From Candidatus Jordarchaeales archaeon (lineage in GTDB: Archaea > Asgardarchaeota > Jordiarchaeia > Jordiarchaeales > Freyrarchaeaceae): 32,000 bases of DNA. This document shows positions 2,929 to 22,041 of the stretch, in pieces. Both the position numbers and the translations under genes were made by a program. A model generated the notes under the pieces. That model did no database searches. It saw only the letters and a program-made list of their open reading frames with translations, and was not told the DNA's origin. Location: positions 8,063 to 40,062 of the forward strand of contig JAWAHN010000003.1 of the NCBI GenBank assembly GCA_038889235.1. The letters run 5' to 3'. Position 1 is the stretch's first letter, and each line of letters starts with the position of its first letter.

Positions 2929-3064
2929 GTGAAGGGTTGTCGCGAATGCCCCCTCGAGTTGCCCATTGTTCCAGTGCTGTGTTCGCTCAACTCAGAGCAG
3001 ACATTGGGAAAGTATATATCCCTGCTCGCGGTTAATGGTTTAAAAAAGAAACGTGTTGGTTTGT

Positions 3065-3610
3065 ATGAAGCGAGAGATGACCGAGTTGAACCTACACAGC
3101 GCCTTCGCAGGGGAGAGCCAAGCTCACATGAGGTACACTATTTTCGCTGAGAGAGCCGGGAGAAGCGGGTTTGAGAACGTTGCAAGGCTCTTCACGGCGA
3201 TAGCGTTCGCTGAAAAAGTCCACGCTTCAAACCACTATTCAGCCACCTCGTCCAAAGGAGACTTTCTCACGTTTTCCACGGCAGGCTTCGGCTCAAAAAC
3301 TGTTTCAGAAGACCTAGAAATCGCCATAAATGGTGAAACATTCGAGGTGAACGAAATGTACCCCGCGTACATTGCTGTGGCTAAAATGCAAAACCATGAG
3401 GATGCCTTGAAAAGCTTCACCTGGGCTTTAGAGGCGGAAAAAACGCACGCCGAGCTATTCAGGAAGGCGAAGCAAGCCGTGGACAGCGGGAAAGACGTAA
3501 AACTTGGAACAATTCAGGTGTGCTGCGTCTGCGGCTACACGGTTGAGGGAGAAGCGCCAGACAAGTGCCCAATATGCGGCTCCTCGAAGAAAGCCTTTAG
3601 GTCATTTTAA
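3065..3610 (+). CDS. rbr: Rubrerythrin
   Basis: AFAGESQAHMRY, AEKVHA, GETFEVNEMYP, AEKTHA diiron motifs and C-terminal CCVCGY...CPICG rubredoxin-like site; ATG at 3065 preferred over the track TTG at 3053. Confidence 0.95.
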   Translation: MKREMTELNLHSAFAGESQAHMRYTIFAERAGRSGFENVARLFTAIAFAEKVHASNHYSATSSKGDFLTFSTAGFGSKTVSEDLEIAINGETFEVNEMYPAYIAVAKMQNHEDALKSFTWALEAEKTHAELFRKAKQAVDSGKDVKLGTIQVCCVCGYTVEGEAPDKCPICGSSKKAFRSF

Positions 3611-3697: not shown

Positions 3698-3744
3698 TTC
3701 GAGTTCCCACTATTATGTTAAAAATCTTCTTAGGAGTAGTGGTT

Positions 3745-4926
3745 ATGTTGGCTTTAAAAGTTGCGGACAGCGTTTATTGGGTTGGAGCCGTGGACTGGAA
3801 TTTACGCTTCTGCGGCTCCTACACCACTCCCCTAGGAACGTCCTACAACGCATACCTGATAGTTGACAAGAAAACGGTGCTGATAGACGCAGTTAAGGGG
3901 ACGCATGCGGCTGAGATGATTAGTAGAATTAGGAGCGTCGTCGACCCGGAAAAGATAGACTACTTCATAATTAATCACGCCGAGCTCGACCACGCAGGCG
4001 CCTTCAAAGAGGTGCTTAAAGTCGCCCCCAACGCTGAGGTGATATGCTCAGATAGGGGGAGGGACTCTCTGAAGGGGCACTTCGACTTCGACAAGGATCT
4101 GACGATAGTCAAAACAGGTGACGAGCTTAACATAGGAGGCAGAAATCTCCTCTTCATAGAAGCCAGAATGCTACACTGGCCCGACAACATGATGACCTAC
4201 CTTAAAGAAGACCACATACTCTTCTCGAACGACCCATTCGGCCAACACCTAGCGACGTCACAAAGGTTTGCCGACGAGCTCGACGAAAACTTCGTAATGG
4301 ACCACGCCGCAAGGTACTTTGCTCAGATAGTCATGCCCTACTCCCAGCTCGTCCTAAAGAAACTGGAGGAGGTCAAGTCTCTTAACGTGCCAATCGACAT
4401 TATATGCCCGGCGCACGGGCTCATATGGAGGAAAAACCCCGAAAAAATACTGAAGGCGTACGAGCGGTGGGCGAAGGGGGAGGCCGAGGACAGGGCGGTC
4501 ATATACTTCGACACTATGTGGGGGAGCACCGACATCATGGCGAGGGAGATAGCCAAGGGCATATCCGATAGCGGGATCCCAGTAACCGTCTACAACACGC
4601 GGACATCAGAGTGGAGCATCATGGCAAGAGACCTGCTCCTGTCGAAGATAGTGCTGGTGGGCTCAGCGACCCTAAACATGACGATGATGCCGTCAGTCGC
4701 AGCCCTTCTCTCGTTCTTCAAAAGCCTCAGACCACCACCAAAAGTGGCGTCAGCATTCGGCTCCTTCGGCTGGGGGGGCGGAGCAGTAAGAGACATAATC
4801 AACACACTCAAAGAAATGAAGTTCAATGTCGTCGAACCCGGACTACAAATCAAATGGATGCCAAGAGCCGAGCAACTAAAAGAGTGCTACGAGTTCGGTA
4901 AACAAATAGCTCAAAAAATAAAGTAG
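3745..4926 (+). CDS. fprA: Flavodiiron protein FprA (metallo-beta-lactamase + flavodoxin domains; O2/NO reductase)
   Basis: YWVGAVDW, GTSYNAYLI, NHAELDHAG (HxExDH), LHWPD, PAHG, flavodoxin YFDTMWGST and AFGSFGWGGGA; likely start ATG 3745 (track start 3715). Confidence 0.95.
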   Translation: MLALKVADSVYWVGAVDWNLRFCGSYTTPLGTSYNAYLIVDKKTVLIDAVKGTHAAEMISRIRSVVDPEKIDYFIINHAELDHAGAFKEVLKVAPNAEVICSDRGRDSLKGHFDFDKDLTIVKTGDELNIGGRNLLFIEARMLHWPDNMMTYLKEDHILFSNDPFGQHLATSQRFADELDENFVMDHAARYFAQIVMPYSQLVLKKLEEVKSLNVPIDIICPAHGLIWRKNPEKILKAYERWAKGEAEDRAVIYFDTMWGSTDIMAREIAKGISDSGIPVTVYNTRTSEWSIMARDLLLSKIVLVGSATLNMTMMPSVAALLSFFKSLRPPPKVASAFGSFGWGGGAVRDIINTLKEMKFNVVEPGLQIKWMPRAEQLKECYEFGKQIAQKIK

Positions 4927-5904: not shown

Positions 5905-6708
5905 GTGATCGTTGACTTTCACGTGCACCCCTATATAAATAACGGTGCGGGGAAACGTTTCAGCGTGAAGGACTACTGGACGCTGGAACTCTGCCGTTAT
6001 GCTCTCAAGTACCTGCACTTAGAAGCCGGCGCTAGATGGGTGTGCCGTTATCTTGAATCCCGCCTCGTGCCCAGAGGGGTAGGCTTCTGCGTGCTTTCCG
6101 CTGCGGAGCTGCGCCTCATGGATCTGATAAAGGCTATCGTTAGGCTTCGCCCCGATTTCTTCGTGGGATTTTGTACAGTTGACCCCCACGCGCCGGATGT
6201 CGACGTTCAGCTGGTAAGGCGAGTGAAGCTGGACGGGTTTAAGGGACTGAAGGTTCACAGCCTCATGCAGTCCTTCCGCCCCCCTGACGTCCCGAAGCTT
6301 TGGGAGGCGGTCTCTAAGCTTAAGTTAACCGTCCTAGCTCATGGAGGCAAAATATGGGTGAACGATCCAGACTATGCTAACCCTGCATACTATAACGAGG
6401 TCCTCGACACATACCCATTCACGCTCGTTGTAGCTCATATGGGGGGCAACTATGCGAAGGAAGCTGTAGAGCTGGCGAGGCGGTTTGACAGCGTCTACCT
6501 CGAAACATCGGGTGCCTCGAAGAAGAGGATAATGTACGCTCTCGAAAGCCTTGGATGCGAAAGAATAGTCTACGGAAGCGATACACCCTACATACCGTGG
6601 GGGGACCCGGTGAACGAAATAGAGAAGATTAGGAGTCTGCCTATAAGGGAGTGGGAAAAAGAAAGAATACTTGGAGAAAATGCGAAGGAGCTTCTCGGCC
6701 TAACTTGA
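5905..6708 (+). CDS. Amidohydrolase family protein (amidohydro_2 TIM barrel)
   Basis: VDFHVH, FKGLKVH, LAHGG, VAHMGG, YLETS, YGSDTPY. Confidence 0.9.
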   Translation: MIVDFHVHPYINNGAGKRFSVKDYWTLELCRYALKYLHLEAGARWVCRYLESRLVPRGVGFCVLSAAELRLMDLIKAIVRLRPDFFVGFCTVDPHAPDVDVQLVRRVKLDGFKGLKVHSLMQSFRPPDVPKLWEAVSKLKLTVLAHGGKIWVNDPDYANPAYYNEVLDTYPFTLVVAHMGGNYAKEAVELARRFDSVYLETSGASKKRIMYALESLGCERIVYGSDTPYIPWGDPVNEIEKIRSLPIREWEKERILGENAKELLGLT

Positions 6709-7293: not shown

Positions 7294-7668
7294 ATGAGCT
7301 CGTTTGGAAACTTAATCTATACGCCTGAGAGAGCCACCGGGGAAGCGGTCAGCAAAATAGAGTCGCACACGCCGAAGATAGAGGCGCCGGACAGCGTCAA
7401 AGCAGACCAACCCTTCGAAGTGAAAGTATCAGTCGGCCCCCACCCGAACACGGTCGAGCACTCAATAAGAGCCATCGAAGTCTACTTCTACGAGGAGGGG
7501 CGCGCGTTTAACCCAATACTCTTAGCGAACATCACGTTGACACCAGTCTACACGCAGCCAACTGTGAAGCTCACACTGTCACTCAAAAAGAGTGGCACAA
7601 TATATGCAGTGGAGTATTGCAACCTCCACGGACTATGGGAAGCCAGAAAGAATATCACAGTAACCTAA
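7294..7668 (+). CDS. sor: Superoxide reductase (class II SORL / neelaredoxin-type)
   Basis: ESHTPKIEAP, HPNTVEHSI, YCNLHGLW iron ligands; no N-terminal desulforedoxin domain. Confidence 0.9.
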   Translation: MSSFGNLIYTPERATGEAVSKIESHTPKIEAPDSVKADQPFEVKVSVGPHPNTVEHSIRAIEVYFYEEGRAFNPILLANITLTPVYTQPTVKLTLSLKKSGTIYAVEYCNLHGLWEARKNITVT

Positions 7669-7738: not shown

Positions 7739-8083
7739 TTATATCTCCCTATAGACATCAATGAACCTCTTGTATGTCTCCCACTCTTTCGGGGTCAGAA
7801 GGTGTACTTCTAGAGAAGAGTCATCAAACCCTTCAGTCAACTTCAATCTGACCTTCGTCCTCTCGGTAGCCCCCTCAGGCACACCGGGGGAAACCACTGC
7901 CACATCTACGTCAGAAAACATCGGGTGGTAGTCCCCCCTCACCACGCTTCCAAAAACGTAAACCTTCACTTCGGGAAGCAGACTCATAGCCCTCACTTTA
8001 ACCTCCTCAACGTATTTCTCCCACCGCTCAAAAAACCCCTTCCTCTTCTCGTAAATCCTCCTGGCGAGCTCAACGGGCCTCAT
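7739..8083 (-). CDS. Minimal nucleotidyltransferase (MNT) antitoxin
   Basis: VYVFGSVVRGDYHPMFSDVDVAV (GS..DxD); likely ATG at 8083 overlapping the HEPN stop (track start 8113). Confidence 0.9.
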   Translation of the reverse strand: MRPVELARRIYEKRKGFFERWEKYVEEVKVRAMSLLPEVKVYVFGSVVRGDYHPMFSDVDVAVVSPGVPEGATERTKVRLKLTEGFDDSSLEVHLLTPKEWETYKRFIDVYREI

Positions 8084-8453
8084 AACTACAAACCAGCCTC
8101 CACAATTCCTCAAACACTACAAACAAACCCTCAACGTCCTCCCTCATATACCTTCTCCCAAGATACCTTGAAGCTATATATGCGTCCTCGAGAACTCCAA
8201 GCTTATCCCTAAACTTCTCACGAAATCCGGAAATCTCCACGAAAACCTCGGCGGCCTCGCTGAGCAATTTACCCAAACTATGCGTCCTAGAAAAATAACC
8301 TATCCTAAAGGCGAGAAGGTACTTGATAAGAAGCTGGCATGCCTGCTCAAGAAGAAAAACCGCCCAATCATAACTCCCGTCCTCGAAAGCCTTCTTCGCC
8401 AACTCAAAGCCCCTCAGCGCCCTCTCCCTCAGAAGGGCAACATCTTCTCTCAT
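8070..8453 (-). CDS. HEPN domain protein (toxin partner of MNT)
   Basis: AFEDGSYDWAVFLLEQACQLLIKYLL, RTHSLGKL, YIASRY typical of COG2250-type HEPN; directly upstream of MNT. Confidence 0.9.
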   Translation of the reverse strand: MREDVALLRERALRGFELAKKAFEDGSYDWAVFLLEQACQLLIKYLLAFRIGYFSRTHSLGKLLSEAAEVFVEISGFREKFRDKLGVLEDAYIASRYLGRRYMREDVEGLFVVFEELWRLVCSYEAR

Positions 8454-8899: not shown

Positions 8900-10426
8900 T
8901 TATATTGTTATGGTTTGCGATGCTAGTAGTGTGATTAGCTGTTCTGGCGTTATTGTGTTCCATCCGAGTATTATGGTGAACATGTAGATCAGTGCTACTC
9001 CGACCAGTATAGATGAGACCATTATGGGGACGCTGTGTTTCATGAATGTTGTCCACGAGATTGGCTTGCCTTCTCTGCTGAGTATGGATAGGGCGAGTAT
9101 TACCGTGGTCTCCCCTACCGGAGTGAGTATTGAGCCTAACTTGGTGCCGTATAGCAGGGCCCAAGCTATAGCCTTCTCTGATACGAGGGCGCTGAGGGCG
9201 GCAACTGGTATCATGTGAAGCAGAGTCACGGCTACGGCGACGTCCTCTAGGACTCCTGACAGCACAGATGATAATGTTATCGTGAGGGATACTAACATCA
9301 GGGCGTTTCCCTGTGATATCGCACCTAACGCTTCCCCCGCCGCTCCCAGGATCCCGGTGCTGTATACTCCTCCAACGACTATGAATATCCCTATTAGGAA
9401 CAATAGGAGCTCCCAGTCGACCTCCATTATCGCTTTTCTGGGGTCGATGTTCCCCAATAACAGGAAGGCTACTGCAAATACGAGCATGACGATGTATATT
9501 TGAACTCCTAGGGGGCTAGCGATTATCAATCCTACTATCATTAGTATTAGGAGAATTATGGTTCTCTTGAAGACTGCCTTATCTTCTATTAGACTGGACT
9601 CGTCGAGCGACATGATGCGCACTCTCAAGGTTTCAAACTCCGCGTTTTCTGGTTTCGCAATAGATTCCCTAAACGACCTCTGGACTAGGAACATGGATAT
9701 GGCTGAGCAAGCTAATGCGAACGGTGTTCCTAGTAACAGGAAGCCAGTGTAGTCTAGGAGGTATGACGGGTTCATCTGGTAGTGTGACGCGATTACTATG
9801 TTGGCCGTTGTGCCTATGAGTGTTGACATCGCAGCGTAGTTGTTCACGAAGAGCTCCCCCAGAATGTATGGCCGGGGGTCTATTCCAAGGGAACGGGTGA
9901 GCGTGACAGTTAAAGATACGATGACTATGAACGCGGGAATTAAGCCCATTGCCAATGTTAAAAGGTAAGTGAGGGCGCAGAAATATACGAAGAGAACCTT
10001 TGGGTCCCCTCCCCCCCTCTTGATGACCTTGACCACTATGTACTCGAATAAACCCGACCTGGAGACCGTCGAGGAGACTATGAGCAGTGCTATCACTATC
10101 ATTATTGTCTGCCAGTCTACCATCTCGGTGAGAACTTGCTCGCTTGTGAAGAGCAGGGGCTTCATAGTCGGGTACCTGCCTTGTGCTACGTCAAGCACGG
10201 CGCCGGTGAGGGGAACCCAGCTGAAAACCGTTTCAAAGTACTTGCCGGCGAGTATTGTTGCAGCAGCTCCGCACAGGGCGGCTAAGGCCTTGTTAACTTT
10301 TTCAGTGGCAAGCAGGATGAGCGTGATGGCGAATATTGCTATGAAAACGACGTAGACGAAGGCAGGAGGGGTGTAAATCCACTTTTCTAAAAACTCTGCA
10401 AAGTAGCTCTGCACTAACCCTTGCAT
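8900..10426 (-). CDS. ArsB/NhaD (IT superfamily) secondary transporter with divergent signature motifs
   Basis: About 12 hydrophobic helices; KVNKALAALCGA, VDWQTI, SGLFEY, STLIGTTANI, VDWELLLFLIGIFIVVGG; likely ATG at 10426 (track start 10579). Confidence 0.85.
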   Translation of the reverse strand: MQGLVQSYFAEFLEKWIYTPPAFVYVVFIAIFAITLILLATEKVNKALAALCGAAATILAGKYFETVFSWVPLTGAVLDVAQGRYPTMKPLLFTSEQVLTEMVDWQTIMIVIALLIVSSTVSRSGLFEYIVVKVIKRGGGDPKVLFVYFCALTYLLTLAMGLIPAFIVIVSLTVTLTRSLGIDPRPYILGELFVNNYAAMSTLIGTTANIVIASHYQMNPSYLLDYTGFLLLGTPFALACSAISMFLVQRSFRESIAKPENAEFETLRVRIMSLDESSLIEDKAVFKRTIILLILMIVGLIIASPLGVQIYIVMLVFAVAFLLLGNIDPRKAIMEVDWELLLFLIGIFIVVGGVYSTGILGAAGEALGAISQGNALMLVSLTITLSSVLSGVLEDVAVAVTLLHMIPVAALSALVSEKAIAWALLYGTKLGSILTPVGETTVILALSILSREGKPISWTTFMKHSVPIMVSSILVGVALIYMFTIILGWNTITPEQLITLLASQTITI

Positions 10427-10642
10427 AGCCAAAACTTTCTCCTCCAGCGGTATATTTCTCGCGCTCCGAACGCCTCTGTCGTTAAAACTTTCGAAATGAT
10501 TTGCTAAAATCTTTTTCCTTTCCGCTCCCGCTTTCTGGTGAGTTCTCCAATGAGCACACAGCAGCCTGCTTAGGCGCAAAGCACGTTAGGATGTTTTTTG
10601 TAGGCGGCCTCTTTTCCGGCTGGATTTAACTGAACCTTTAGC

Positions 10643-12637
10643 CTACTCGCCTTCCAAACTATACTTAAACTCGCAGAACTCGTCCCCGCATCCCATCCTC
10701 CGCGTTCTCTCGAGGACTATTTTCGGGTTCACTGTTTCAGCCCAGCTCCTGTAAACCGCCTCGCAAACCTCGCCACACATCGCTGGGATGACGTGCCTCC
10801 TCCCGGACTTCACGACCGCCTCGAGCCAGGGGCAAACGTAAACCCTCATTACAGCCTCCCTCTCACTGAGGGAGTGCGTCTCGAACACCCACTTCTCCAT
10901 TCTCCACCTAAGTGAGATGCTCTTCACCAACGCGTCCAGCCCATCTCCCTTGACGTCAAACTCCCTCATTATCCTCTTGGCGAGTATCCTCGCAAACAAT
11001 CTCCAGACACGTGCGTCAAGCTCAGCCGCCTCGCTTAAGCCATACTTTTCCTCAACGCTCATGAACCAAACGCCGTCAATGGCGGCGTAAGCGCCACGAA
11101 AGAACTCGGCCACCCTCTCAGGGGGTATGTACTCAACGCTAGAACGGCCTCCCCCAACACCAGCGTCAACGCTCCCCCCTCCCGAATACGCCTCCACCCT
11201 CCTCCTAAACTCCCGGTACTCCACCATCTTCGCCAGACACCTTGCAGCCCTCGTAGGTGATGTAAAGACAGGAACACCTGCTTCAGCCATCATTTTAAGC
11301 AACTTCTCATCCCTAGCGACCACGAAAACCGGCTTACTGTGCTTTTTCACCACTCCAGCCACATGGTCAACCATGTTCCTCCTCAGCGAGTTCATGAATG
11401 CCTCAGCCCCTTCCTCGCTGCCGACGATTCGCCTCACCCCTCCGGAAACATCGTAAGCCATGCTTTCCACAATCAACATGTCTACTCCTCCTTCACCTAA
11501 GAGAAGGTCGTAACACCACGCGTAAAGCTCCATGTCCATGCTGGCGGCTAAATCCACGGGGTTTCCACGGCTCCAGTAATAAGGAGCCCTAGCACTAATC
11601 TTCTTCACCACGCTCTCCGGCAACTGAACCAACTCTAACCCGTGCTCCTCGCACGCGTCAGCGGCCAGAACACCCCACCCTCCACCACCCGTCACCACAC
11701 CTATCCTTCGCCCCTCAGGCAGCGGGCTCAGGGAGAACGCGACAGCCAGGTCTATCAGCTCCTCACAGTCGGATGCAAGGATAATCCCCGTCTGCTTCGC
11801 CACACCTTTGAAAACCTGGAGCGAGCCCGCAACTGAGGCCGTGTGGGAGCGCGCAGCCCTAGCCCCAGCCCTAGTCCTACCCCCCTTAAGGCATATGAGT
11901 GGCTTCTTCTCCGCCACCTTCCTCGCAACTTCCATAAACCTCCTTCCGTCCCTAACCCCTTCCATGAAAACTGCGACAACCTTTGTCTCTGGGTCATGGG
12001 CGAAGAATTCAAGGTAGTCTTCTAACCTCACCTGTGCCTCGTTTCCGCTACTAACGAACCTAGCCACCCCACTTCCACGTTGCGACAGCGAGTCCATGAG
12101 CATCATGCCTACTGTTCCACTCTGGCTCACGATCGAAACACTCCCCTTGCGCGGGAAAAGCGGGTTCATGAGGGCGTGAAGGTTGCTAGATGCGCTGTAA
12201 ACTCCCATGCAGTTTGGCCCGACGAGGCTCATGCCGCTTTCATTGCATATCTTCACGAGTTCCTCCTGCATGCGCTCCCCTTCGCCGCCAATCTCCCTGA
12301 AGCCAGCTGTTATGACCACACACCAGTTCACACCTTTCTCGGCGCACTCCCTAACAGAGTTTACGACGCTCTTAGCCGGAACCGCTACTATTGCTAGGTC
12401 GACGTCGCCGGGAACCTGTTTAATACTATGATACGCCTTAAATCCTAAGACGCTCTCAGTGCTCGGATTCACGGGGTAAACATCTCCCTTAAAGCCCCCT
12501 GTCACAATGGTGGAAAACAAGATCATGCCTATTTTTCCCGGCGTATTGGAAGCACCGATAACAGCCACGCTTCTAGGGTTGAAGAGCCGCTCCCATTTGA
12601 GCTCGCGCCCGCTCATTACGACCACCATACCGCACAT
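10643..12637 (-). CDS. NDP-forming acyl-CoA synthetase alpha subunit fused to a C-terminal DUF6125/ATC-hydrolase-like (V4R/HNOX clan) domain
   Basis: FNPRSVAVIGAS, YPVNP, GPNCMG, SQSG, SSGNE, ARSHTASVAGS (phospho-His), TGGGGWGVLAAD, NPVDL; Gly-rich linker; then AIDGVWFMSVEEKYG...CPW...C...C...CGDEFCEF. True start may be ATG 12628 or 12616. Confidence 0.85.
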   Translation of the reverse strand: MCGMVVVMSGRELKWERLFNPRSVAVIGASNTPGKIGMILFSTIVTGGFKGDVYPVNPSTESVLGFKAYHSIKQVPGDVDLAIVAVPAKSVVNSVRECAEKGVNWCVVITAGFREIGGEGERMQEELVKICNESGMSLVGPNCMGVYSASSNLHALMNPLFPRKGSVSIVSQSGTVGMMLMDSLSQRGSGVARFVSSGNEAQVRLEDYLEFFAHDPETKVVAVFMEGVRDGRRFMEVARKVAEKKPLICLKGGRTRAGARAARSHTASVAGSLQVFKGVAKQTGIILASDCEELIDLAVAFSLSPLPEGRRIGVVTGGGGWGVLAADACEEHGLELVQLPESVVKKISARAPYYWSRGNPVDLAASMDMELYAWCYDLLLGEGGVDMLIVESMAYDVSGGVRRIVGSEEGAEAFMNSLRRNMVDHVAGVVKKHSKPVFVVARDEKLLKMMAEAGVPVFTSPTRAARCLAKMVEYREFRRRVEAYSGGGSVDAGVGGGRSSVEYIPPERVAEFFRGAYAAIDGVWFMSVEEKYGLSEAAELDARVWRLFARILAKRIMREFDVKGDGLDALVKSISLRWRMEKWVFETHSLSEREAVMRVYVCPWLEAVVKSGRRHVIPAMCGEVCEAVYRSWAETVNPKIVLERTRRMGCGDEFCEFKYSLEGE

Positions 12638-13077: not shown

Positions 13078-14277
13078 GTGGCTTCGCCCGGGGATCTAAG
13101 GGAAGTCGATGAGATAAAAAGTAGGATTACGATTGACGGGTGGCGGATCGTCTATTTGGGTATGCGGTACGCTTTCACGGCCCGAGACCTCTTTATGAGA
13201 GTAGCTAAGGAGTTAACCAGCTTTTTGGGTTCGTCTGTCAGGAGCGTCATACTGCAATTTACCTCCCTTTCCGGTCTAACGGAGATGGAGCGCCTGCTTA
13301 AAGTGGGAAATCTGTCTCCTGACGAGGCCCTTGAGAGGTACGCTAGCTTTCTTACAGCGTCAGGGTGGGGGGTAACCAAAGTTGTCGAGTTGGACTTAAG
13401 CAAAAGCGAGTTCGTGTTCAGAGTGCACGACTCCGGTTTTGCGGCATGGCTTAGAGACAACCTGGGGAACGTTGAGGAAGTCTTTCCGTTTTATGACTGC
13501 GGACTGCTAGGCTACCGCTTAGTCGGTGCTACCACAGCGGTTCTAGAAGAATCGGGTGTGAAGGAACCGTTATCCTACGAGGAAGTGGAATGTTTAGCCA
13601 GAGGTGGGCGCTACTGCGAGTTCCACATTAAAAAGAACGAGGAAGCCGCCCCGATACGTAGGCTTGAGGGGGAGATTCCGAGGCCCATGTTTAGCTACGA
13701 CGAAGTGAGAGCGGCCTCGTGCGGCGTTAACCTCTCTAAGAAAAATCCGAGAAGCGTGATCGGCCACTTTGTTAACTCATTAAAGGTGGAAGAAGGCTCA
13801 CTCAGAGTGGGAAGGGAGACAGTCTTCTTCGTGCCGTCATTCCTCCACTCCATCGCATACTGGATGCTGCCCCTCGAAAAGTTCGGTAACTTCATATACA
13901 CGGTATACCGGAAAGCAGTGAACGAGTACGGTAGGACGCTTGCGAAGGAGAGTGAAAAGTACGGGTGTATCGGTGTAACCGAGTTTTTCCTAAACTCGAC
14001 TTCAGCCATGGGGTGGGGGGGAATAGAAGTAGAGGAGTTCAGCGACTCTAGGGTATCCTTCAAGATATACCACTCACTCCTCGGCGAAGACGTTAAGGCG
14101 TATGCGTCGTGGAAGGGCTTAAATCTTCAGCCATCATGCAACCTAATAGGATACGTTGTTGAAGGCATACTAAACTACTTTGCTAGGCAGAAGGGGGAAG
14201 TTTTCACAGCCAGAGAGGATAGATGCATAGCAGCAGGCGACCCACTCTGCAAATTCACGATAGAAAAAGAAAGGTAG
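13078..14277 (+). CDS. Stand-alone tandem V4R (4-vinyl reductase) domain protein
   Basis: Two internal repeats: SGWGVTKV...C...EEVECLARGGRYCEF and MGWGGIEV...C...EDRCIAAGDPLCKF; no HTH or ATPase domain seen. Confidence 0.85.
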   Translation: MASPGDLREVDEIKSRITIDGWRIVYLGMRYAFTARDLFMRVAKELTSFLGSSVRSVILQFTSLSGLTEMERLLKVGNLSPDEALERYASFLTASGWGVTKVVELDLSKSEFVFRVHDSGFAAWLRDNLGNVEEVFPFYDCGLLGYRLVGATTAVLEESGVKEPLSYEEVECLARGGRYCEFHIKKNEEAAPIRRLEGEIPRPMFSYDEVRAASCGVNLSKKNPRSVIGHFVNSLKVEEGSLRVGRETVFFVPSFLHSIAYWMLPLEKFGNFIYTVYRKAVNEYGRTLAKESEKYGCIGVTEFFLNSTSAMGWGGIEVEEFSDSRVSFKIYHSLLGEDVKAYASWKGLNLQPSCNLIGYVVEGILNYFARQKGEVFTAREDRCIAAGDPLCKFTIEKER

Positions 14278-14530: not shown

Positions 14531-15247
14531 TTGCTGGGTATTTTTGTTGGGACGAGCGGTTGGGCTTACTTTTGGAACCCTGAAGGAAGCTTCGACTGGT
14601 ATCTTAAGAACAGCGGTTTCAACGCCGTCGAGCTCAACGCAAGCTACTACAGGTTTCCTTTTCCGAGCCAGGTTAGAGGCTGGGCTAAGAAGACTCCTGA
14701 GTGGTTTAGGTGGGCTGTCAAGGTCTCTCGCTTTATAACACACGTGTTCAAATTCGGTGAGCGCGCATACCAAACCTGGCAAAAGTTTAGAAATCTTTTC
14801 GCCCCCCTCGACGAGAAAATCAGCTTTTACCTCTTCCAGCTTCCACCCAACATGAAGCCGACTGAGAAGAACGTTGAGAAAATAGAGCGGTTCGCCGAGG
14901 AGTCGGAACTTGGGCCGCGCTTCGCACTGGAGTGGAGGAACGAGGAGTGGTTTAGCGAGAAGTGGGTTAACTGGGCGCGCAGATTAAACATAACTATAGT
15001 CTCAGTTGACGCCCCCGAACTGCCACGCGACATCATGGTGTCTAATGGAAGAGTCTACCTTAGAATGCATGGCAGGACGGCGTGGTACTCCCACGTCTAT
15101 AGCAGGGAGGAGCTTGAAGAGGTCGCTGAGAGAATAGTTGCCGAGGGACCCGAGCTCGTCTACGTCTTCTTCAACAACGACACGGGAATGCTTCCAAACG
15201 GAAGGGAGATGCTGCAAATACTGAAGCTTAAGCTTGCACCACAATAA
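14531..15247 (+). CDS. DUF72 (YecE-like) protein
   Basis: FVGTSGWAY, FNAVELNASYY, FRWAVKVSRFITH, LFQLPP, ALEWR, YLRMHGR, YVFFNND. Confidence 0.92.
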   Translation: MLGIFVGTSGWAYFWNPEGSFDWYLKNSGFNAVELNASYYRFPFPSQVRGWAKKTPEWFRWAVKVSRFITHVFKFGERAYQTWQKFRNLFAPLDEKISFYLFQLPPNMKPTEKNVEKIERFAEESELGPRFALEWRNEEWFSEKWVNWARRLNITIVSVDAPELPRDIMVSNGRVYLRMHGRTAWYSHVYSREELEEVAERIVAEGPELVYVFFNNDTGMLPNGREMLQILKLKLAPQ

Positions 15248-15369
15248 ACCCTTGAGCACCCTCCAGCGACTGGTAGCATGCTGACCCCGGGGGGGAGACT
15301 TTTCTACCGTAATTTTTAAGATGACTCTTCGATAAGAATAGTTTCAAGGGGTTATCGGAGGGGAGGGCT

Positions 15370-15867
15370 TTGTCGGAGTATGTTGAGGTTATTGTAGACC
15401 ACGATTTGAAGGACGTGACTCCAGAGATGATCGATTGGTGGTGGGACAACATAAATGAGGAAAGGTACAAGCTCTGGCACCCGAAAGACCACAAGGGGTT
15501 CAAGTGGGAGGTTCACCCAAAGGAGAAAGGCCACGTTGGCGCTATACACGTGGCGGAAGAAGACATCGGCGATATGACCGTGACGCTGCGCATACGCTGG
15601 GAGGACCCGAAAAACGTACCTATACCTGTAACTATGAGCCACGCTGTCGCGGCAAGCATAATCGACGAGAACGGAGAACCGATGGCTTGGCTGGTACACC
15701 AGTACGAGGCAACGCCGAATGGGACCAGAATGCGTTCAACGTTCAAGATACCCGCGATACTTTCAGAGTACATCGCTAAAGGGCTCTACAGGCACTGCAA
15801 AGAAGAGATGGGAAACCTGCCAAAATTCCTCCCAAAGTTGTACAAGGAGGAAAAGAAGGAACAGTGA
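15370..15867 (+). CDS. DAPG hydrolase (PhlG)-like START-fold protein
   Basis: VTPEMIDWWW, YKLWHPKDH, EEDIG, GTRMRSTF, LYRHCKEEMGNL. Confidence 0.75.
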   Translation: MSEYVEVIVDHDLKDVTPEMIDWWWDNINEERYKLWHPKDHKGFKWEVHPKEKGHVGAIHVAEEDIGDMTVTLRIRWEDPKNVPIPVTMSHAVAASIIDENGEPMAWLVHQYEATPNGTRMRSTFKIPAILSEYIAKGLYRHCKEEMGNLPKFLPKLYKEEKKEQ

Positions 15868-18700: not shown

Positions 18701-19240
18701 ATGAAAAAATTTAAGCTCACGATAGAGCTTGTCCCCACCCCACTCTGGTTTTCATCTCTGTACAACCTTTACAGGAATGCTGGGATTCCTGAAGAGTGGC
18801 GTAGGATTAAAGCCGAACTTTTCAGAAAGGAGGGGAGAAAGTGTTGGATCTGTGGCAGGGAGGATAGGCGCTTGGAGGCTCACGAGTTCTGGGAGTACGA
18901 TGACGAGAGACATGTTCAGAGACTTGTCGCTATACACCATCTGTGTGACCTCTGCCACAAGGTTAAGCACATAGGGTTCTGGTGTTACACTGAGGAGGGC
19001 AGGAGGAGGCTGAGGAGTGAGGGATTAAGCGAGGAGCATCTGATCGAGCACTTCTGTAGGGTTAACAACTGTTCCAGGGAAGAATTTGAGAAACACAAAA
19101 ATGAGGCTTTCAGAGTTTGGATGGAGAGGAACATGCACTCGTGGACACAGGACCTCGGAGAATACGACCCTGAAAAGAGGAGGGCGAGGCTGCGGGGGCG
19201 TGAACCCAGCTCAAAAACGCCTACTAAGATGCCTTTATAA
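18701..19240 (+). CDS. HNH-endonuclease-like zinc-binding protein
   Basis: ATG at 18701 after GGTGGT; KLTIELVP, CWICG, LEAHEFWEY, LCDLCHKVKH. Track start 18491 adds non-coding-looking sequence. Confidence 0.7.
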   Translation: MKKFKLTIELVPTPLWFSSLYNLYRNAGIPEEWRRIKAELFRKEGRKCWICGREDRRLEAHEFWEYDDERHVQRLVAIHHLCDLCHKVKHIGFWCYTEEGRRRLRSEGLSEEHLIEHFCRVNNCSREEFEKHKNEAFRVWMERNMHSWTQDLGEYDPEKRRARLRGREPSSKTPTKMPL

Positions 19241-20726
19241 GTGGGATTTCCTCCTCACCCTCACGATGAGCCGCCTTCCTCCTCGCCAGGAAGTCGTAGT
19301 ATGTCTTGGCGTTTCTCAGTGCGTCGCACAGCCTCCTCATGTCCGGGTAAACAGGTATCCTCTCCTTGGCTAGTATGTCCCTCAATTTAACCCATAGTGC
19401 CTCGTCACCTATGGGTGAGAGAACCACTGCGAACGGCTTCCCTTCTTTTATGGCTTTCTTGCCTGAACTCACCAGCGCATCGGTGAACTCTCCTTTGAAC
19501 GCGTCACTCTGCCTCCAGTTGTAAGCCAGGTACATTACAGGAAGATCGAAGACTATCAAGTCTATGTTTGGGTCGCTTGCAATAGCATCTATGACGGTTG
19601 AAACAACTACCGGGTTGTAGTATGCACCCGACACGTCGACCGGGTTCGTGGCACTTATCCCCTCCGGGTAAACTCGTCTAACTTCCTCCTCTATCACTCT
19701 GACAGTTTCCTCGCTTAATGGGGGAACCTTGAACCCAGCCTCGGATAGGAGGTCGCTTATCGTAACGCTTGCTCCGCCACTAATGGACACGCTGCCAACC
19801 CTGTTCCCCCTCAACGGTGGAAGGAACGAGAATGTGAGCGCTGTGTCAACAAGCTCTTCAAGCGTCTTAACTTCGACAACACCCGTCTGCCTGAAAACCG
19901 CGCTCCATATCCTGTAGCTCCCAGCTAGAGACCCTGTGTGAGAGGCGCATGCCCGTGCCCCGTCCTCACTCCTCCCTCCTTTCCACACTACCAGAGGCTT
20001 CTTTAAGGAGACTTCTAGGAAAGCTTCTGCAAGCCTCTCAGCGCTCTTAACTCCCTCAATGTAGGCAGTCACAACACGCGTCTCCTCGTCATCCTTAAAG
20101 TACGACAGCAGTTCTTCAAGCCCTATATCGCAAGCGTTGCCGTAGCTCACAACCTTGCTAAACCTCAACCCCCTAGTATAGCCGTAAAGTATCACAAGGT
20201 TAGCCAAGCCTCCACTTTGGCTCACGAAGGCGACGTCTCCGGGTTCAAGGGGGAGGTTTATCCTCCAGGCGAGACCCACCCTGGGGTTGTAAAGGCCGAG
20301 GCAGTTCGGTCCAAGCACACGCGTGCGGGTCCCTTTAATGGTCTCCTTAATCTTTTCCTCCAGTTCTATGCCCTCCCTGCGCCCCGTTTCGCTGAAACCC
20401 GCCGTGAATATGGCGACGAGTTTTGCTCCTTTCTCGACGCAGTCCTTAACTATCTCTGGAACCGTGTGCGCCGGGGTTTCTATGAAGACGTAGTCGACTT
20501 TGTCCGGGATATCCGTCACTCGGGGGTAGACCTTTAACCCCAACTCCGGTATCTCGCTCCTACTGGGATTAACCACGTACACTCTTCCCTTGAACCTTAG
20601 GAAAGACCTAAGGAAGAAATAGCCTCTTTTGCTTGAAGCCCCAACGTCAACTACTGTTTCAGGGTTAAAGGCTTCGTCTAACTCGCTCTTCAAGTTGCAT
20701 AGCCTCCGACCGGAAGTCCATTGCAA
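19224..20726 (-). CDS. NDP-forming acyl-CoA synthetase alpha subunit (CoA-binding), stand-alone
   Basis: FNPET..VGAS, YVVNP, FTAGFSE, GPNCLG, SQSGG, VSYGNACD, ASHTGSLAGS, SGGASV, NPVD; likely TTG start at 20693. Confidence 0.9.
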   Translation of the reverse strand: MQWTSGRRLCNLKSELDEAFNPETVVDVGASSKRGYFFLRSFLRFKGRVYVVNPSRSEIPELGLKVYPRVTDIPDKVDYVFIETPAHTVPEIVKDCVEKGAKLVAIFTAGFSETGRREGIELEEKIKETIKGTRTRVLGPNCLGLYNPRVGLAWRINLPLEPGDVAFVSQSGGLANLVILYGYTRGLRFSKVVSYGNACDIGLEELLSYFKDDEETRVVTAYIEGVKSAERLAEAFLEVSLKKPLVVWKGGRSEDGARACASHTGSLAGSYRIWSAVFRQTGVVEVKTLEELVDTALTFSFLPPLRGNRVGSVSISGGASVTISDLLSEAGFKVPPLSEETVRVIEEEVRRVYPEGISATNPVDVSGAYYNPVVVSTVIDAIASDPNIDLIVFDLPVMYLAYNWRQSDAFKGEFTDALVSSGKKAIKEGKPFAVVLSPIGDEALWVKLRDILAKERIPVYPDMRRLCDALRNAKTYYDFLARRKAAHREGEEEIPLIKAS

Positions 20727-20890
20727 AAATTCACTTGCCCGCCTGTAAGTCCGGGCGGGTTATGAACACTATCCTCTCACCTTTGTTTTTTAAGTTTTCC
20801 CTTTTTCGTTTCAAAGAGCATTACGGTAGGAGAAAAATAAATAACGCTTCCTTCCCTATTTTCTTTTTGCTAAAATGGGGGTCGAGTGCC

Positions 20891-21226
20891 TTGGAGGAGC
20901 CTAGTTCTGAGGACAGCAGTTTTAGCAGCGGGCTCCTTCCCGTTTTAGCTGAAATAAAGAGGCGTCTCGAAAACGTCTGTAGGGATAAGATCGTCGACAT
21001 AATACCATTCGGGATCGAACGGTCTAAGAACCTAGAAGGCGTTGACGCGGCAATAGTGTTGAAAGAGGAAGAAGAACTTAACAATAGTGCGAAGAGGATA
21101 AGCAAGGTTCTAGAAGAGGTTCTTAAAGAGAAGAAGATAAGGGTGCGCTTCATATCACAGGAGAAGCTCGAAAAAACCATGTGGCCCCTGTACATTCAGA
21201 GGAAGTCTGTTAGGAGGGCGCAGTGA
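20891..21226 (+). CDS. Degenerate nucleotidyltransferase-fold-like small protein
   Basis: EIKRRLENVC.DKIVDIIPFG...VDAAIVL...IRVRFISQEKL follows the MNT layout but lacks GS and DxD; TTG at 20891 chosen (track start 20735); stop overlaps the sirtuin GTG. Confidence 0.5.
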   Translation: MEEPSSEDSSFSSGLLPVLAEIKRRLENVCRDKIVDIIPFGIERSKNLEGVDAAIVLKEEEELNNSAKRISKVLEEVLKEKKIRVRFISQEKLEKTMWPLYIQRKSVRRAQ

Positions 21227-22041
21227 CCCCGCCAGCTCGGGGTGTTAATCATCCAGTGTCCTCCTGGGGGAGGGGTTCGTTTCTGGGCGTTAGTCGTGAA
21301 ATGCTGGCTAAGCTCGTAGACATACCTGTGAGTAAGCGTTTACGCGTCGTAGCGTTAACTGGAGCCGGTGTTTCAGCCGAGAGTGGTGTCCCCATTTTCC
21401 GGGGCCCGGGATCCATGTGGGAGATTCCAGAGGTTAGAGAGCTTGCCCGTAGGGCTGGTCCACCGTGGAATAACAGGGAGACATGGGAGTTCTACGAGTG
21501 GAGGAGGGGGCTTGTGGCGCGCTGCAAGCCTAACGCCGCCCACCTAACGCTTGCGGAGATGGAGCGTTACTTTGAAGACTTCTGCCTCATAACGCAGAAC
21601 GTCGACGGGCTCCACTGGAGGGCTGGAAGCAAGCACGTCCTCGAGCTTCACGGCAGTATGTGGAAGGGACGGTGCCCCAAGGATGGAGCCGTAGTAGATC
21701 TTCCCGAAACGCCTCTCAAGAGCATTCCGCCAGTGCACGAGTGTGGAACCCCAATGCGCCCCCACGTCGTGCAGTTCGGAGAGCCAATAGACCCCGACGT
21801 TTTGAGGAAGGCTGTGGCCGCGAGCAGAAAGGCTGACCTATTCCTCGTCATCGGCACTTCCGGCGTTGTGGCACCTGCATCCCACCTTCCTCTCATAGCC
21901 CTCGAAAGAGGGGCGAAGCTCATAGAAGTTAACCCCAGAACCACAGTCCTGACTCCATACATGCACCTCTCCGTCAGGGGTAAAGCTGCAGAAGTTTTAC
22001 CAAGAATTTGGAAGATACTTGTCGGCGAAGAAAAATATTAA
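21223..22041 (+). CDS. cobB: NAD-dependent protein deacylase, class III sirtuin
   Basis: LTGAGVSAESG, PNAAH, TQNVDGLH, ELHGS, RPHVVQFGE, VIGTSG, EVNP; YEWR (YxxR) class III motif; alternative start ATG 21301. Confidence 0.93.
   Translation: MTPPARGVNHPVSSWGRGSFLGVSREMLAKLVDIPVSKRLRVVALTGAGVSAESGVPIFRGPGSMWEIPEVRELARRAGPPWNNRETWEFYEWRRGLVARCKPNAAHLTLAEMERYFEDFCLITQNVDGLHWRAGSKHVLELHGSMWKGRCPKDGAVVDLPETPLKSIPPVHECGTPMRPHVVQFGEPIDPDVLRKAVAASRKADLFLVIGTSGVVAPASHLPLIALERGAKLIEVNPRTTVLTPYMHLSVRGKAAEVLPRIWKILVGEEKY

Follow-up and report, generated by a model that had tools for sequence, protein, structure and literature searches.

The window analyzed here is a 32,000-nucleotide stretch of the genome of a Candidatus Jordarchaeales archaeon (Asgardarchaeota; assembly GCA_038889235.1, contig JAWAHN010000003.1, positions 8,063 to 40,062 of the forward strand); positions below are counted from its first letter. 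The window contains a gene, P0001, in which the alpha subunit of an NDP-forming acyl-CoA synthetase (ACD) is joined through a linker to a C-terminal DUF6125/ATC_hydrolase domain, with a transporter gene on one side and a gene for a protein with two V4R domains on the other (Table 1). An original prediction, made from the letters of the stretch and a list of its open reading frames (ORFs), had described a complete alpha subunit, a linker, and an additional C-terminal domain in one frame, and the ORF and the Pfam and NCBIfam domain assignments agree with this description. All motifs quoted at that stage were recovered, namely, SHTAS with His265, the linker GGGSVDAGVGGGRSS (residues 486 to 500), IDGVWF...EEKYG (residues 519 to 535), and the cysteines C602 (in CPW), C621, C625, C650, and C655. 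Thus, the observation is confirmed, and the interpretation attached to it, a ligand- or metal-sensing domain that gates the synthetase or channels substrate to it, is partly supported. The true start of the protein is probably M8 (12614-12616), yielding a product of 657 amino acids (aa), because residue 8 is the first of the Atlas record and the database homologs are 656 to 659 aa long.

Table 1. Coordinates of the fusion gene, its parts and functional residues, and the adjacent genes
Feature	Position	Strand	Remarks
Fusion gene P0001	10643..12637	-	664 aa; single ORF, no internal stop or frameshift
ACD alpha part, residues 1-485	11183..12637	-	CoA-binding Rossmann domain, phosphohistidine-loop domain, subdomain 5; Pfam and NCBIfam matches
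Glu226 codon	11960-11962	-	Invariant in alpha alignments
His265 codon, predicted phosphohistidine (SHTAS)	11843..11845	-	Invariant in alpha alignments
Gly/Ser-rich interdomain linker, residues 486-505	11123..11182	-	Low model confidence; hypervariable
DUF6125/ATC_hydrolase domain, residues 506-664	10646..11122	-	V4R/Bet3/H-NOX-like fold; Pfam, AlphaFold2, Foldseek and VIA-align, dN/dS
Putative metal-site cysteines	10673..10834	-	C602, 10832-10834; C621, 10775-10777; C625, 10763-10765; C655, 10673-10675
CitMHS/ArsB-family anion transporter	8900..10579	-	Pfam; directly downstream of the fusion; start probably near 10426-10450
P0002, two V4R domains	13078..14277	+	Pfam V4R; divergent from the fusion

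Modules of the fusion protein

ACDs are the terminal ATP-conserving enzymes in the archaeal fermentation of peptides and sugars. The alpha part of P0001 is matched by the Pfam models CoA_binding_2 (PF13380; residues 22 to 147; E = 2.5e-23), Succ_CoA_lig (PF13607; residues 164 to 300; E = 1.9e-48), and Ligase_CoA_2 (PF19045; residues 314 to 378; E = 3e-07), and by the NCBIfam ACD alpha model TIGR02717, which aligns to residues 16 to 474 over model positions 2 to 446 of 447. The TIGR02717 score (457 bits) is lower than the equivalog cutoff for the alpha subunit of ADP-forming acetate-CoA ligase (567 bits); therefore, the alpha part is best regarded as a paralog without an assigned substrate and not as the acetate enzyme. 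ATP-grasp_5 (PF13549), the module that would identify a single-chain alpha-beta ACD, has no match in P0001. The closest solved structures are those of the Pyrococcus horikoshii protein (2csu; E = 1e-96) and of the alpha subunit of Candidatus Korarchaeum ACD1 (4xyl; E = 6.6e-91), and the SHTAS motif of P0001 lines up with the phosphohistidine motif SHTGS of 2csu. Both His265 and Glu226 are invariant across alignments of 21 to 23 alpha subunits, comprising paralogs and orthologs from the same and related genomes. In the AlphaFold2 (AF2) model of the full-length protein, the alpha core is confident, with the predicted local distance difference test score (pLDDT) mostly above 90 over residues 20 to 480 and a predicted template modeling score of 0.71 for the model. 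Comparison of three species of the genus yields ratios of nonsynonymous to synonymous substitution rates (dN/dS) of 0.06 to 0.09 for the alpha part and 0.17 to 0.21 for the C-terminal domain, so that both modules evolve under purifying selection.

The linker between the two modules is almost unconstrained: its sequence and length vary among the three species through in-frame indels, with nonsynonymous differences per site (pN) of 0.45 to 0.48. In the full-length AF2 model, the pLDDT is below 50 over residues 487 to 520, a stretch that is modeled as disordered, and the domain does not pack confidently on the rest of the protein. A complex prediction for the alpha core and the domain gave a score of 0.01, which amounts to no verdict and was counted neither for nor against.

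The C-terminal domain exceeds the Pfam cutoffs of two families, DUF6125 (PF19620; residues 517 to 650; E = 2e-16; 60.8 bits against a cutoff of 27; model positions 19 to 147 of 164) and ATC_hydrolase (PF14196; residues 522 to 659; E = 5e-11; 44 bits against a cutoff of 28.1; model positions 10 to 145 of 145), and weakly matches MetOD1. Residues 490 to 664, modeled by AF2 from a 60-sequence alignment, reach a mean pLDDT of 94.6 and fold into three long helices, a beta-hairpin, two helices, and a second hairpin. A Foldseek search of this model against the Protein Data Bank (PDB) retrieved Bet3/TRAPPC3, the phenol-sensing V4R domains of MopR, PoxR, and DmpR, and H-NOX (E values of 4e-5 to 1e-3; TM scores of about 0.6). 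VIA-align, an all-against-representatives search that is independent of Foldseek, ranked Bet3 first (Z = 12.1), followed by DmpR (11.5), PoxR (10.9), BcsD (10.5), the Thorarchaeota TRAPPC3 (9.6), the V4R protein MJ1460 (9.1), and H-NOX (8.2), each match spanning about 134 to 156 of the 160 domain residues. The fold of the domain is thus that of the V4R, Bet3, and H-NOX proteins, in agreement with the kinship of MetOD1, HNOB, V4R, and ATC_hydrolase proposed by Galperin et al. in 2018, who noted three conserved cysteines common to the V4R domains of PoxR and MopR, the ATC_hydrolase domain, and MetOD1 (PMC5847659).

Conservation was assessed in an alignment of 60 family members. C602 and C655 are cysteines in all 60 sequences; position 625 is occupied by Cys in 47 sequences and by Asp in 10; and at position 621, half of the alignment (30 sequences) and 11 of 12 members of the close subfamily have Cys. 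Because the exchange of Cys for Asp at position 625 is what a metal ligand would show, this pattern of three or four cysteines fits a metal site, probably one for zinc. The five cysteines listed in the original prediction are all present, but C650 lacks conservation, including among the closest fused homologs. Additionally, W545 is invariant in the 60 sequences, P0001 retains the DGxWF, D..VW, CPW, and C-terminal CxF motifs, and a conserved, largely polar cluster (D521, G522, W524, E529, D541, W545, and R613) is found on the first helices.

A recent, genus-restricted fusion

The DUF6125/ATC_hydrolase family is widespread, being present in 271 of 400 sampled genomes of the phylum as well as in bacteria. 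When 1.84 billion representatives were searched exhaustively with HMMER, 394 clusters of the domain family were obtained, nearly all consisting of stand-alone proteins of 155 to 185 aa or of tandem two-domain proteins of about 340 to 390 aa; the tandem type accounts for approximately 10 of the 150 top-ranking family representatives, and the existence of such members suggests a dimeric unit. A single cluster corresponds to the ACD fusion and another to a fusion with a P-loop kinase, and when further long architectures with the domain were sought by word-based searches, only the three fusion clusters emerged. The kinase fusion (P0012, 326 aa; positions 1682-2662 of L021, a contig of GCA_054799135.1) combines an AAA_33/APS_kinase-like P-loop kinase with DUF6125 and is encoded 4 nucleotides (nt) upstream of a ferredoxin gene, which is followed by an aldehyde:ferredoxin oxidoreductase gene.

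The close subfamily was detected in 83 of the 400 genomes, and a frame of at least 660 aa was found only in three genomes of the window's own genus (G000, which contains the window, G002, and G003), within a class represented by 11 species genomes. The frame is intact in all three. Genome G001 (73% complete) has no match. Two further assemblies, a Logan and a JGI contig belonging to the G003 and G002 species, carry the fusion, so that it is present in three independent species. Across the species-level genomes and the independent assemblies, the length of the frame ranges from 656 to 668 aa. The possibility that the linker conceals an assembly or sequencing error by which two adjacent genes were merged has practically no chance of being correct. 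The continuous frame recurs in three species and in the assemblies obtained independently from Logan and JGI, in-frame indels distinguish the linkers of the species, and the coding sequence is under purifying selection, which together exclude an artifact; in addition, the genes for the domain and the alpha subunit are not even neighbors in relatives that lack the fusion.

These relatives reveal the state that preceded the fusion. The sister genus (G004) encodes a stand-alone domain ortholog of 187 aa with 63% identity to the domain of P0001, and family f2 encodes stand-alone orthologs of 170 aa with 47% identity. The alpha orthologs of the latter family (53% identity; 493 to 495 aa) are unfused, and in a closed genome (G005), the alpha gene is located about 0.7 Mb from the DUF6125 gene. 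Thus, a free-standing DUF6125/ATC_hydrolase gene was recently captured as a C-terminal domain in one Asgard genus. The best match to the alpha part in G004 (60% identity; C37:2118-3137) covers only residues 14 to 353 and contains two in-frame stops; this alpha-like stretch may be a decayed ortholog. In the searchable literature library, DUF6125 is mentioned in no paper, and no description of the ACD alpha-DUF6125 architecture came to light. Overall, the fusion is genuine, restricted to one genus, and maintained by selection, and no description of it was found.

Beta subunits and genomic neighborhood

The catalytic partner of an ACD alpha subunit is the ATP-grasp beta subunit, and, as stated in the original prediction, none of the genes in the window encodes one. 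This absence is nothing unusual. About 12 alpha-type genes are present in the genome (2.14 Mb; 95% complete), which, according to a genome-wide scan, has only two ATP-grasp_5 modules, on contigs C1 and C2. One is an orphan, free beta subunit, a 235-aa protein that matches the full ATP-grasp_5 model and whose gene (C1:729296-729958) is flanked by unrelated genes for a GPN-loop ATPase and a KH-domain protein; the other is part of a 700-aa alpha-beta fusion. Ten other alpha subunits likewise lack an adjacent beta gene, and related genomes carry 9 to 23 alpha subunits, an expansion even larger than that in Thermococcales. In Pyrococcus furiosus, five alpha and two beta subunits combine into ten isoenzymes, all stable and active, and the alpha subunit sets the acyl specificity (PMC3942289). 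Given this pattern, in which few beta subunits serve many alpha subunits, the domain of P0001 need not stand in for beta. The domain does occupy the usual place of beta, as had been noticed, starting where the ATP-grasp module begins (residue 477) in the alpha-beta paralog of the same genome. A second alpha paralog in the window (19224..20726, minus strand; 500 aa) is 32% identical to the alpha part of the fusion and is divergent from a pair of plus-strand genes (20735..22041) that encode a 163-aa ORF without a Pfam match and a Sir2-family deacylase.

In each of the three species with the fusion, the gene for the CitMHS/ArsB-family transporter adjoins it (L018, L019, L052, L023, and L024), which, in a single genus, is weak evidence. 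On the other side, P0002 was considered as a conserved partner of the fusion and rejected, its ortholog in G003 being located on another contig and other small ORFs filling the slot. P0002 weakly matches the NCBIfam MsvR model. Two of the four loci with V4R genes in the genome are within 500 bp of an alpha gene (P of about 0.003 under random placement). In one locus outside the window (C3:83242-89436), co-directional genes encode a ChlI/D-like AAA+-VWA protein (642 aa), two proteins with two V4R domains each (400 and 412 aa), an ACD alpha subunit (481 aa; C3:83242-84687) located 101 nt downstream of the V4R genes, and a metallo-beta-lactamase-fold protein; the gene order recurs in G003 (contig C7). 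Proteins with two V4R domains beside ACD alpha subunits were also considered as a broad Asgard theme, which was rejected, as homologs were found in 4 of the 400 genomes, all in the window's own family.

Several other neighbors recur among close relatives. Genes for rubrerythrin (3053..3610), a flavodiiron-type ODP/flavodoxin (3715..4926), and desulfoferrodoxin (7294..7668) form an oxidative-stress set in the window that is syntenic with the fusion locus in the JGI contig. Overlapping minus-strand genes for a HEPN protein (8070..8453) and a minimal nucleotidyltransferase (7739..8113) make up a pair (7739..8453) typical of a toxin-antitoxin module, and a similar pair adjoins the fusion gene, on the opposite side, in the Logan contig. 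A plus-strand segment (14531..15867) with a DUF72 gene and a short, 165-aa DAPG-hydrolase-like gene is kept beside the fusion in the Logan contig and in G003.

The neighborhoods of close stand-alone relatives of the domain (33 to 65% identity) include several, independent settings of acyl-CoA or organic-acid metabolism. For example, one such gene (P0014) precedes a non-orthologous ACD alpha gene by 190 nt, and a D-2-hydroxyacid dehydrogenase gene comes next (L056); another (P0015) overlaps the gene for a 4HBT acyl-CoA thioesterase (L191); a third (P0011) adjoins the gene for a DUF35-type zf-ChsH2/OB protein; and the ortholog in the sister genus is near a Fer4/ferredoxin gene and an aldehyde:ferredoxin oxidoreductase gene, the same pair as that next to the kinase fusion. 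A DUF72 gene is also found near P0015. Other stand-alone relatives have unrelated neighbors. Among 20 close-subfamily loci, there was no common partner; genes for a ZIP transporter, an Amidohydro_2 protein, and a restriction-modification methylase recur within one family, and an ACD alpha gene is near one locus only (L150). Within f20, a large Asgard family (L142 to L155), a divergent ZIP zinc-transporter gene is beside the domain gene in 7 loci and an Amidohydro_2 gene precedes it in 6; an Amidohydro_2 gene is also present in the window (5905..6708). Similarly, 20 canonical DUF6125 loci shared no partner and showed synteny within families only, with genes for a xylose-isomerase-like TIM barrel protein, a methyltransferase, UbiA, and Yip1.

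Possible roles of the fused domain and known systems

With moderate confidence, we favor an interpretation in which P0001 is a standard, catalytically competent, and beta-dependent ACD alpha subunit with a tethered accessory module of the V4R fold that binds a ligand or metal and is either regulatory or involved in handling the substrate or product. Under this interpretation, the alpha part would most likely work like other archaeal alpha subunits and take the only free ATP-grasp beta subunit of the genome as its partner in trans. The resulting alpha2-beta2 enzyme would use phosphorylated His265 to produce acid, CoA, and NTP from an acyl-CoA, phosphate, and NDP. The domain, on a flexible tether of 20 to 35 residues, would offer the site of three or four cysteines, probably binding zinc, and the polar cluster of D521, E529, D541, W545, and R613. 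It may bind a small molecule, most plausibly an acyl or aryl acid moiety or a related metabolite, and would then act either by allosteric tuning of the synthetase or by retaining the substrate or product and passing it on. The gating or channeling of substrate proposed originally is likewise a hypothesis. In the alpha2 core, the two tails would probably come together, so that the domain acts as a dimer. We infer this use of beta in trans, the binding of ligand and metal, the dimerization, and the effect on catalysis from the architecture, fold, and conservation described above.

Several results weigh against this interpretation. The V4R profile PF02830 does not match the domain at E values up to 1, and a search of the PDB by sequence, with the single sequence or the 60-sequence profile, retrieved nothing meaningful and no solved V4R protein; the comparison with the neighboring V4R protein P0002 likewise gave an hhalign probability of only 4%. 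Because sequence comparison is silent on V4R, the link of the domain to V4R is one of fold, together with the published iterative searches (PMC5847659), and the original assignment to the V4R clan accordingly stands for the fold and fails for the Pfam V4R profile. The cysteines of the domain are thus candidate equivalents of the ligands in the Cys/Glu zinc site of MopR and PoxR. The founding member of the sister family PF14196 is annotated as an enzyme, L-ATC hydrolase, and not as a sensor. The substrate of the alpha part is not assigned, given its score below the TIGR02717 cutoff. Finally, 40 stand-alone DUF6125 loci of the phylum have no universal neighbor, and ACD alpha genes occur within 8 kb of them at about the frequency expected by chance; therefore, the link to ACDs is not a general property of the family, and the association with acyl-CoA metabolism is suggestive for the close subfamily and does not extend to the whole family.

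Two alternatives to the accessory-module interpretation are live. A catalytic domain, for example, a C-S or C-N hydrolase akin to L-ATC hydrolase, would make P0001 a bifunctional enzyme that performs a step before or after the synthetase reaction on the same metabolite. We consider this unlikely, although it deserves serious attention: the domain scores above the cutoff for a family named after an enzyme, the nearly invariant residues D521, E529, D541, and R613 are located beside the cysteine site, relatives are arranged in operon-like fashion with a 4HBT thioesterase gene, with ACD alpha and 2-hydroxyacid dehydrogenase genes, and with an aldehyde:ferredoxin oxidoreductase gene, and Galperin et al. 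suggested that the cognate MetOD1 domain may have an enzymatic activity of a related kind (PMC5847659). However, the structural neighbors of known function are all binding, sensor, or scaffold proteins, metal sites of three or four cysteines are usually structural, the domain fits DUF6125 better than ATC_hydrolase, and genes of a thiazoline or cysteine pathway were not found nearby. In the other, still less likely alternative, the cysteine cluster would sense oxidants or metal and shut down the synthetase under oxidative stress. In the methanogen regulator MsvR, the cysteines of the V4R domain are reported to act in this sensing manner, and the conserved cysteines of the domain, the weak match of P0002 to the MsvR model, and the synteny of the desulfoferrodoxin, flavodiiron ODP/flavodoxin, and rubrerythrin genes with the fusion would be compatible with such a switch. 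This synteny carries little weight, however, being limited to very close relatives, and the Asp found at position 625 in 10 of 60 sequences is easier to reconcile with a stable metal ligand than with a reactive thiol.

The remaining alternatives to an accessory module are less likely. A Bet3-like tail that binds no ligand and simply dimerizes the synthetase or docks it, for instance, to the downstream transporter, appears improbable. It would account for the top structural matches, given that Bet3/TRAPP and BcsD are protein-protein scaffolds, as well as for the tandem family members and the retention of the CitMHS transporter gene beside the fusion, but the conserved polar and cysteine residues exceed the usual needs of an interface and the adjacency of the transporter is confined to one genus. 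A long shot is that V4R-fold proteins of this Asgard lineage are dedicated accessory subunits of acyl-CoA synthetases and that the fused domain captures the acyl group through its invariant cysteine or cysteines and pocket, possibly covalently as in the self-acylation of Bet3 from acyl-CoA, thereby coupling the ACD to acyl hand-off or protein S-acylation instead of the mere release of acid; the second alpha gene located 101 nt downstream of two genes for proteins with two V4R domains and the top structural match to Bet3 are hints in this direction. Our expectation is lower still for replacement of beta by the domain, which would abolish nucleotide coupling and turn P0001 into a CoA-binding, thioesterase-like or transferase-like enzyme. 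The position of the domain at the ATP-grasp site of the genome's own alpha-beta fusion and the repurposing of the ACD scaffold elsewhere (the acetyltransferase Pat and the dimethylsulfoniopropionate lyase DddX, both among the PDB matches) speak for such a replacement; against it, the phosphohistidine and Glu226 are kept under strong purifying selection, a free beta subunit exists, ten other alpha subunits also lack an adjacent beta, and the domain is devoid of nucleotide-binding features.

To our knowledge, no built-in ligand-binding or regulatory domain has been described for ACDs. As a "Rosetta stone," the fusion ties the uncharacterized DUF6125/ATC_hydrolase family to acyl-CoA and organic-acid metabolism and provides a handle for finding the ligand of this domain family. 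The alpha part resembles those of the archaeal heterotetrameric ACDs (P. furiosus ACS1 to ACS5 [PMC3942289], 4xyl, and 2csu), with the same three subdomains and phosphohistidine loop and with few beta subunits acting in trans, whereas the characterized alpha subunits lack the additional C-terminal domain of 160 aa. In single-chain alpha-beta ACDs, such as the ADP-forming 4-hydroxybutyrate-CoA ligase (8wzu) and the 700-aa paralog from the same genome, a second module also follows after about 480 residues, but that module is ATP-grasp, whereas the V4R-like module of P0001 cannot bind nucleotide by that route. Precedents for ACD-superfamily cores with an added function are Pat/YfiQ (9it0) and DddX (7cm9); in these proteins, an alpha and a beta part are combined with a GNAT domain or the chemistry is altered, in contrast to P0001, which has the alpha part only, an intact His, and an appended fold that does not look catalytic.

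Among the relatives of the domain, the Pfam siblings AtcB (L-ATC hydrolase; PF14196) and MetOD1 (PF18546) share a conserved cysteine cluster with it (PMC5847659), but there is no indication of thiazoline metabolism here, and MetOD1 is joined to receiver domains, not to enzymes. Bet3/TRAPPC3 (2cfh and 6aq3; in Asgard, 7yh2 and 7yh3) is the best structural match and holds an acyl chain, 6aq3 being covalently palmitoylated, which connects it in theme with acyl-CoA, although the identity to the domain is only 11 to 14% and TRAPP partners are absent. Among archaea, the Asgard group is the closest to eukaryotes, in which the Bet3/TRAPP proteins have the same fold. The V4R domains of DmpR, MopR, PoxR, XylR, and MJ1460 (2oso) resemble the domain in fold over its entire length (Z of 9 to 11.5), a C-terminal cysteine motif is similar to GDxxCxF, and V4R domains are likewise joined in cis to an effector module. 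Unlike these sensors, the domain has no significant Pfam V4R match, spaces its cysteines differently (C-x18-C-x3-C-x29-C), and is attached to a metabolic enzyme and not to an AAA+/HTH regulator; if it does regulate or feed that enzyme, this would be the first demonstrated case of a V4R-type module whose target is a metabolic enzyme instead of a transcription factor.

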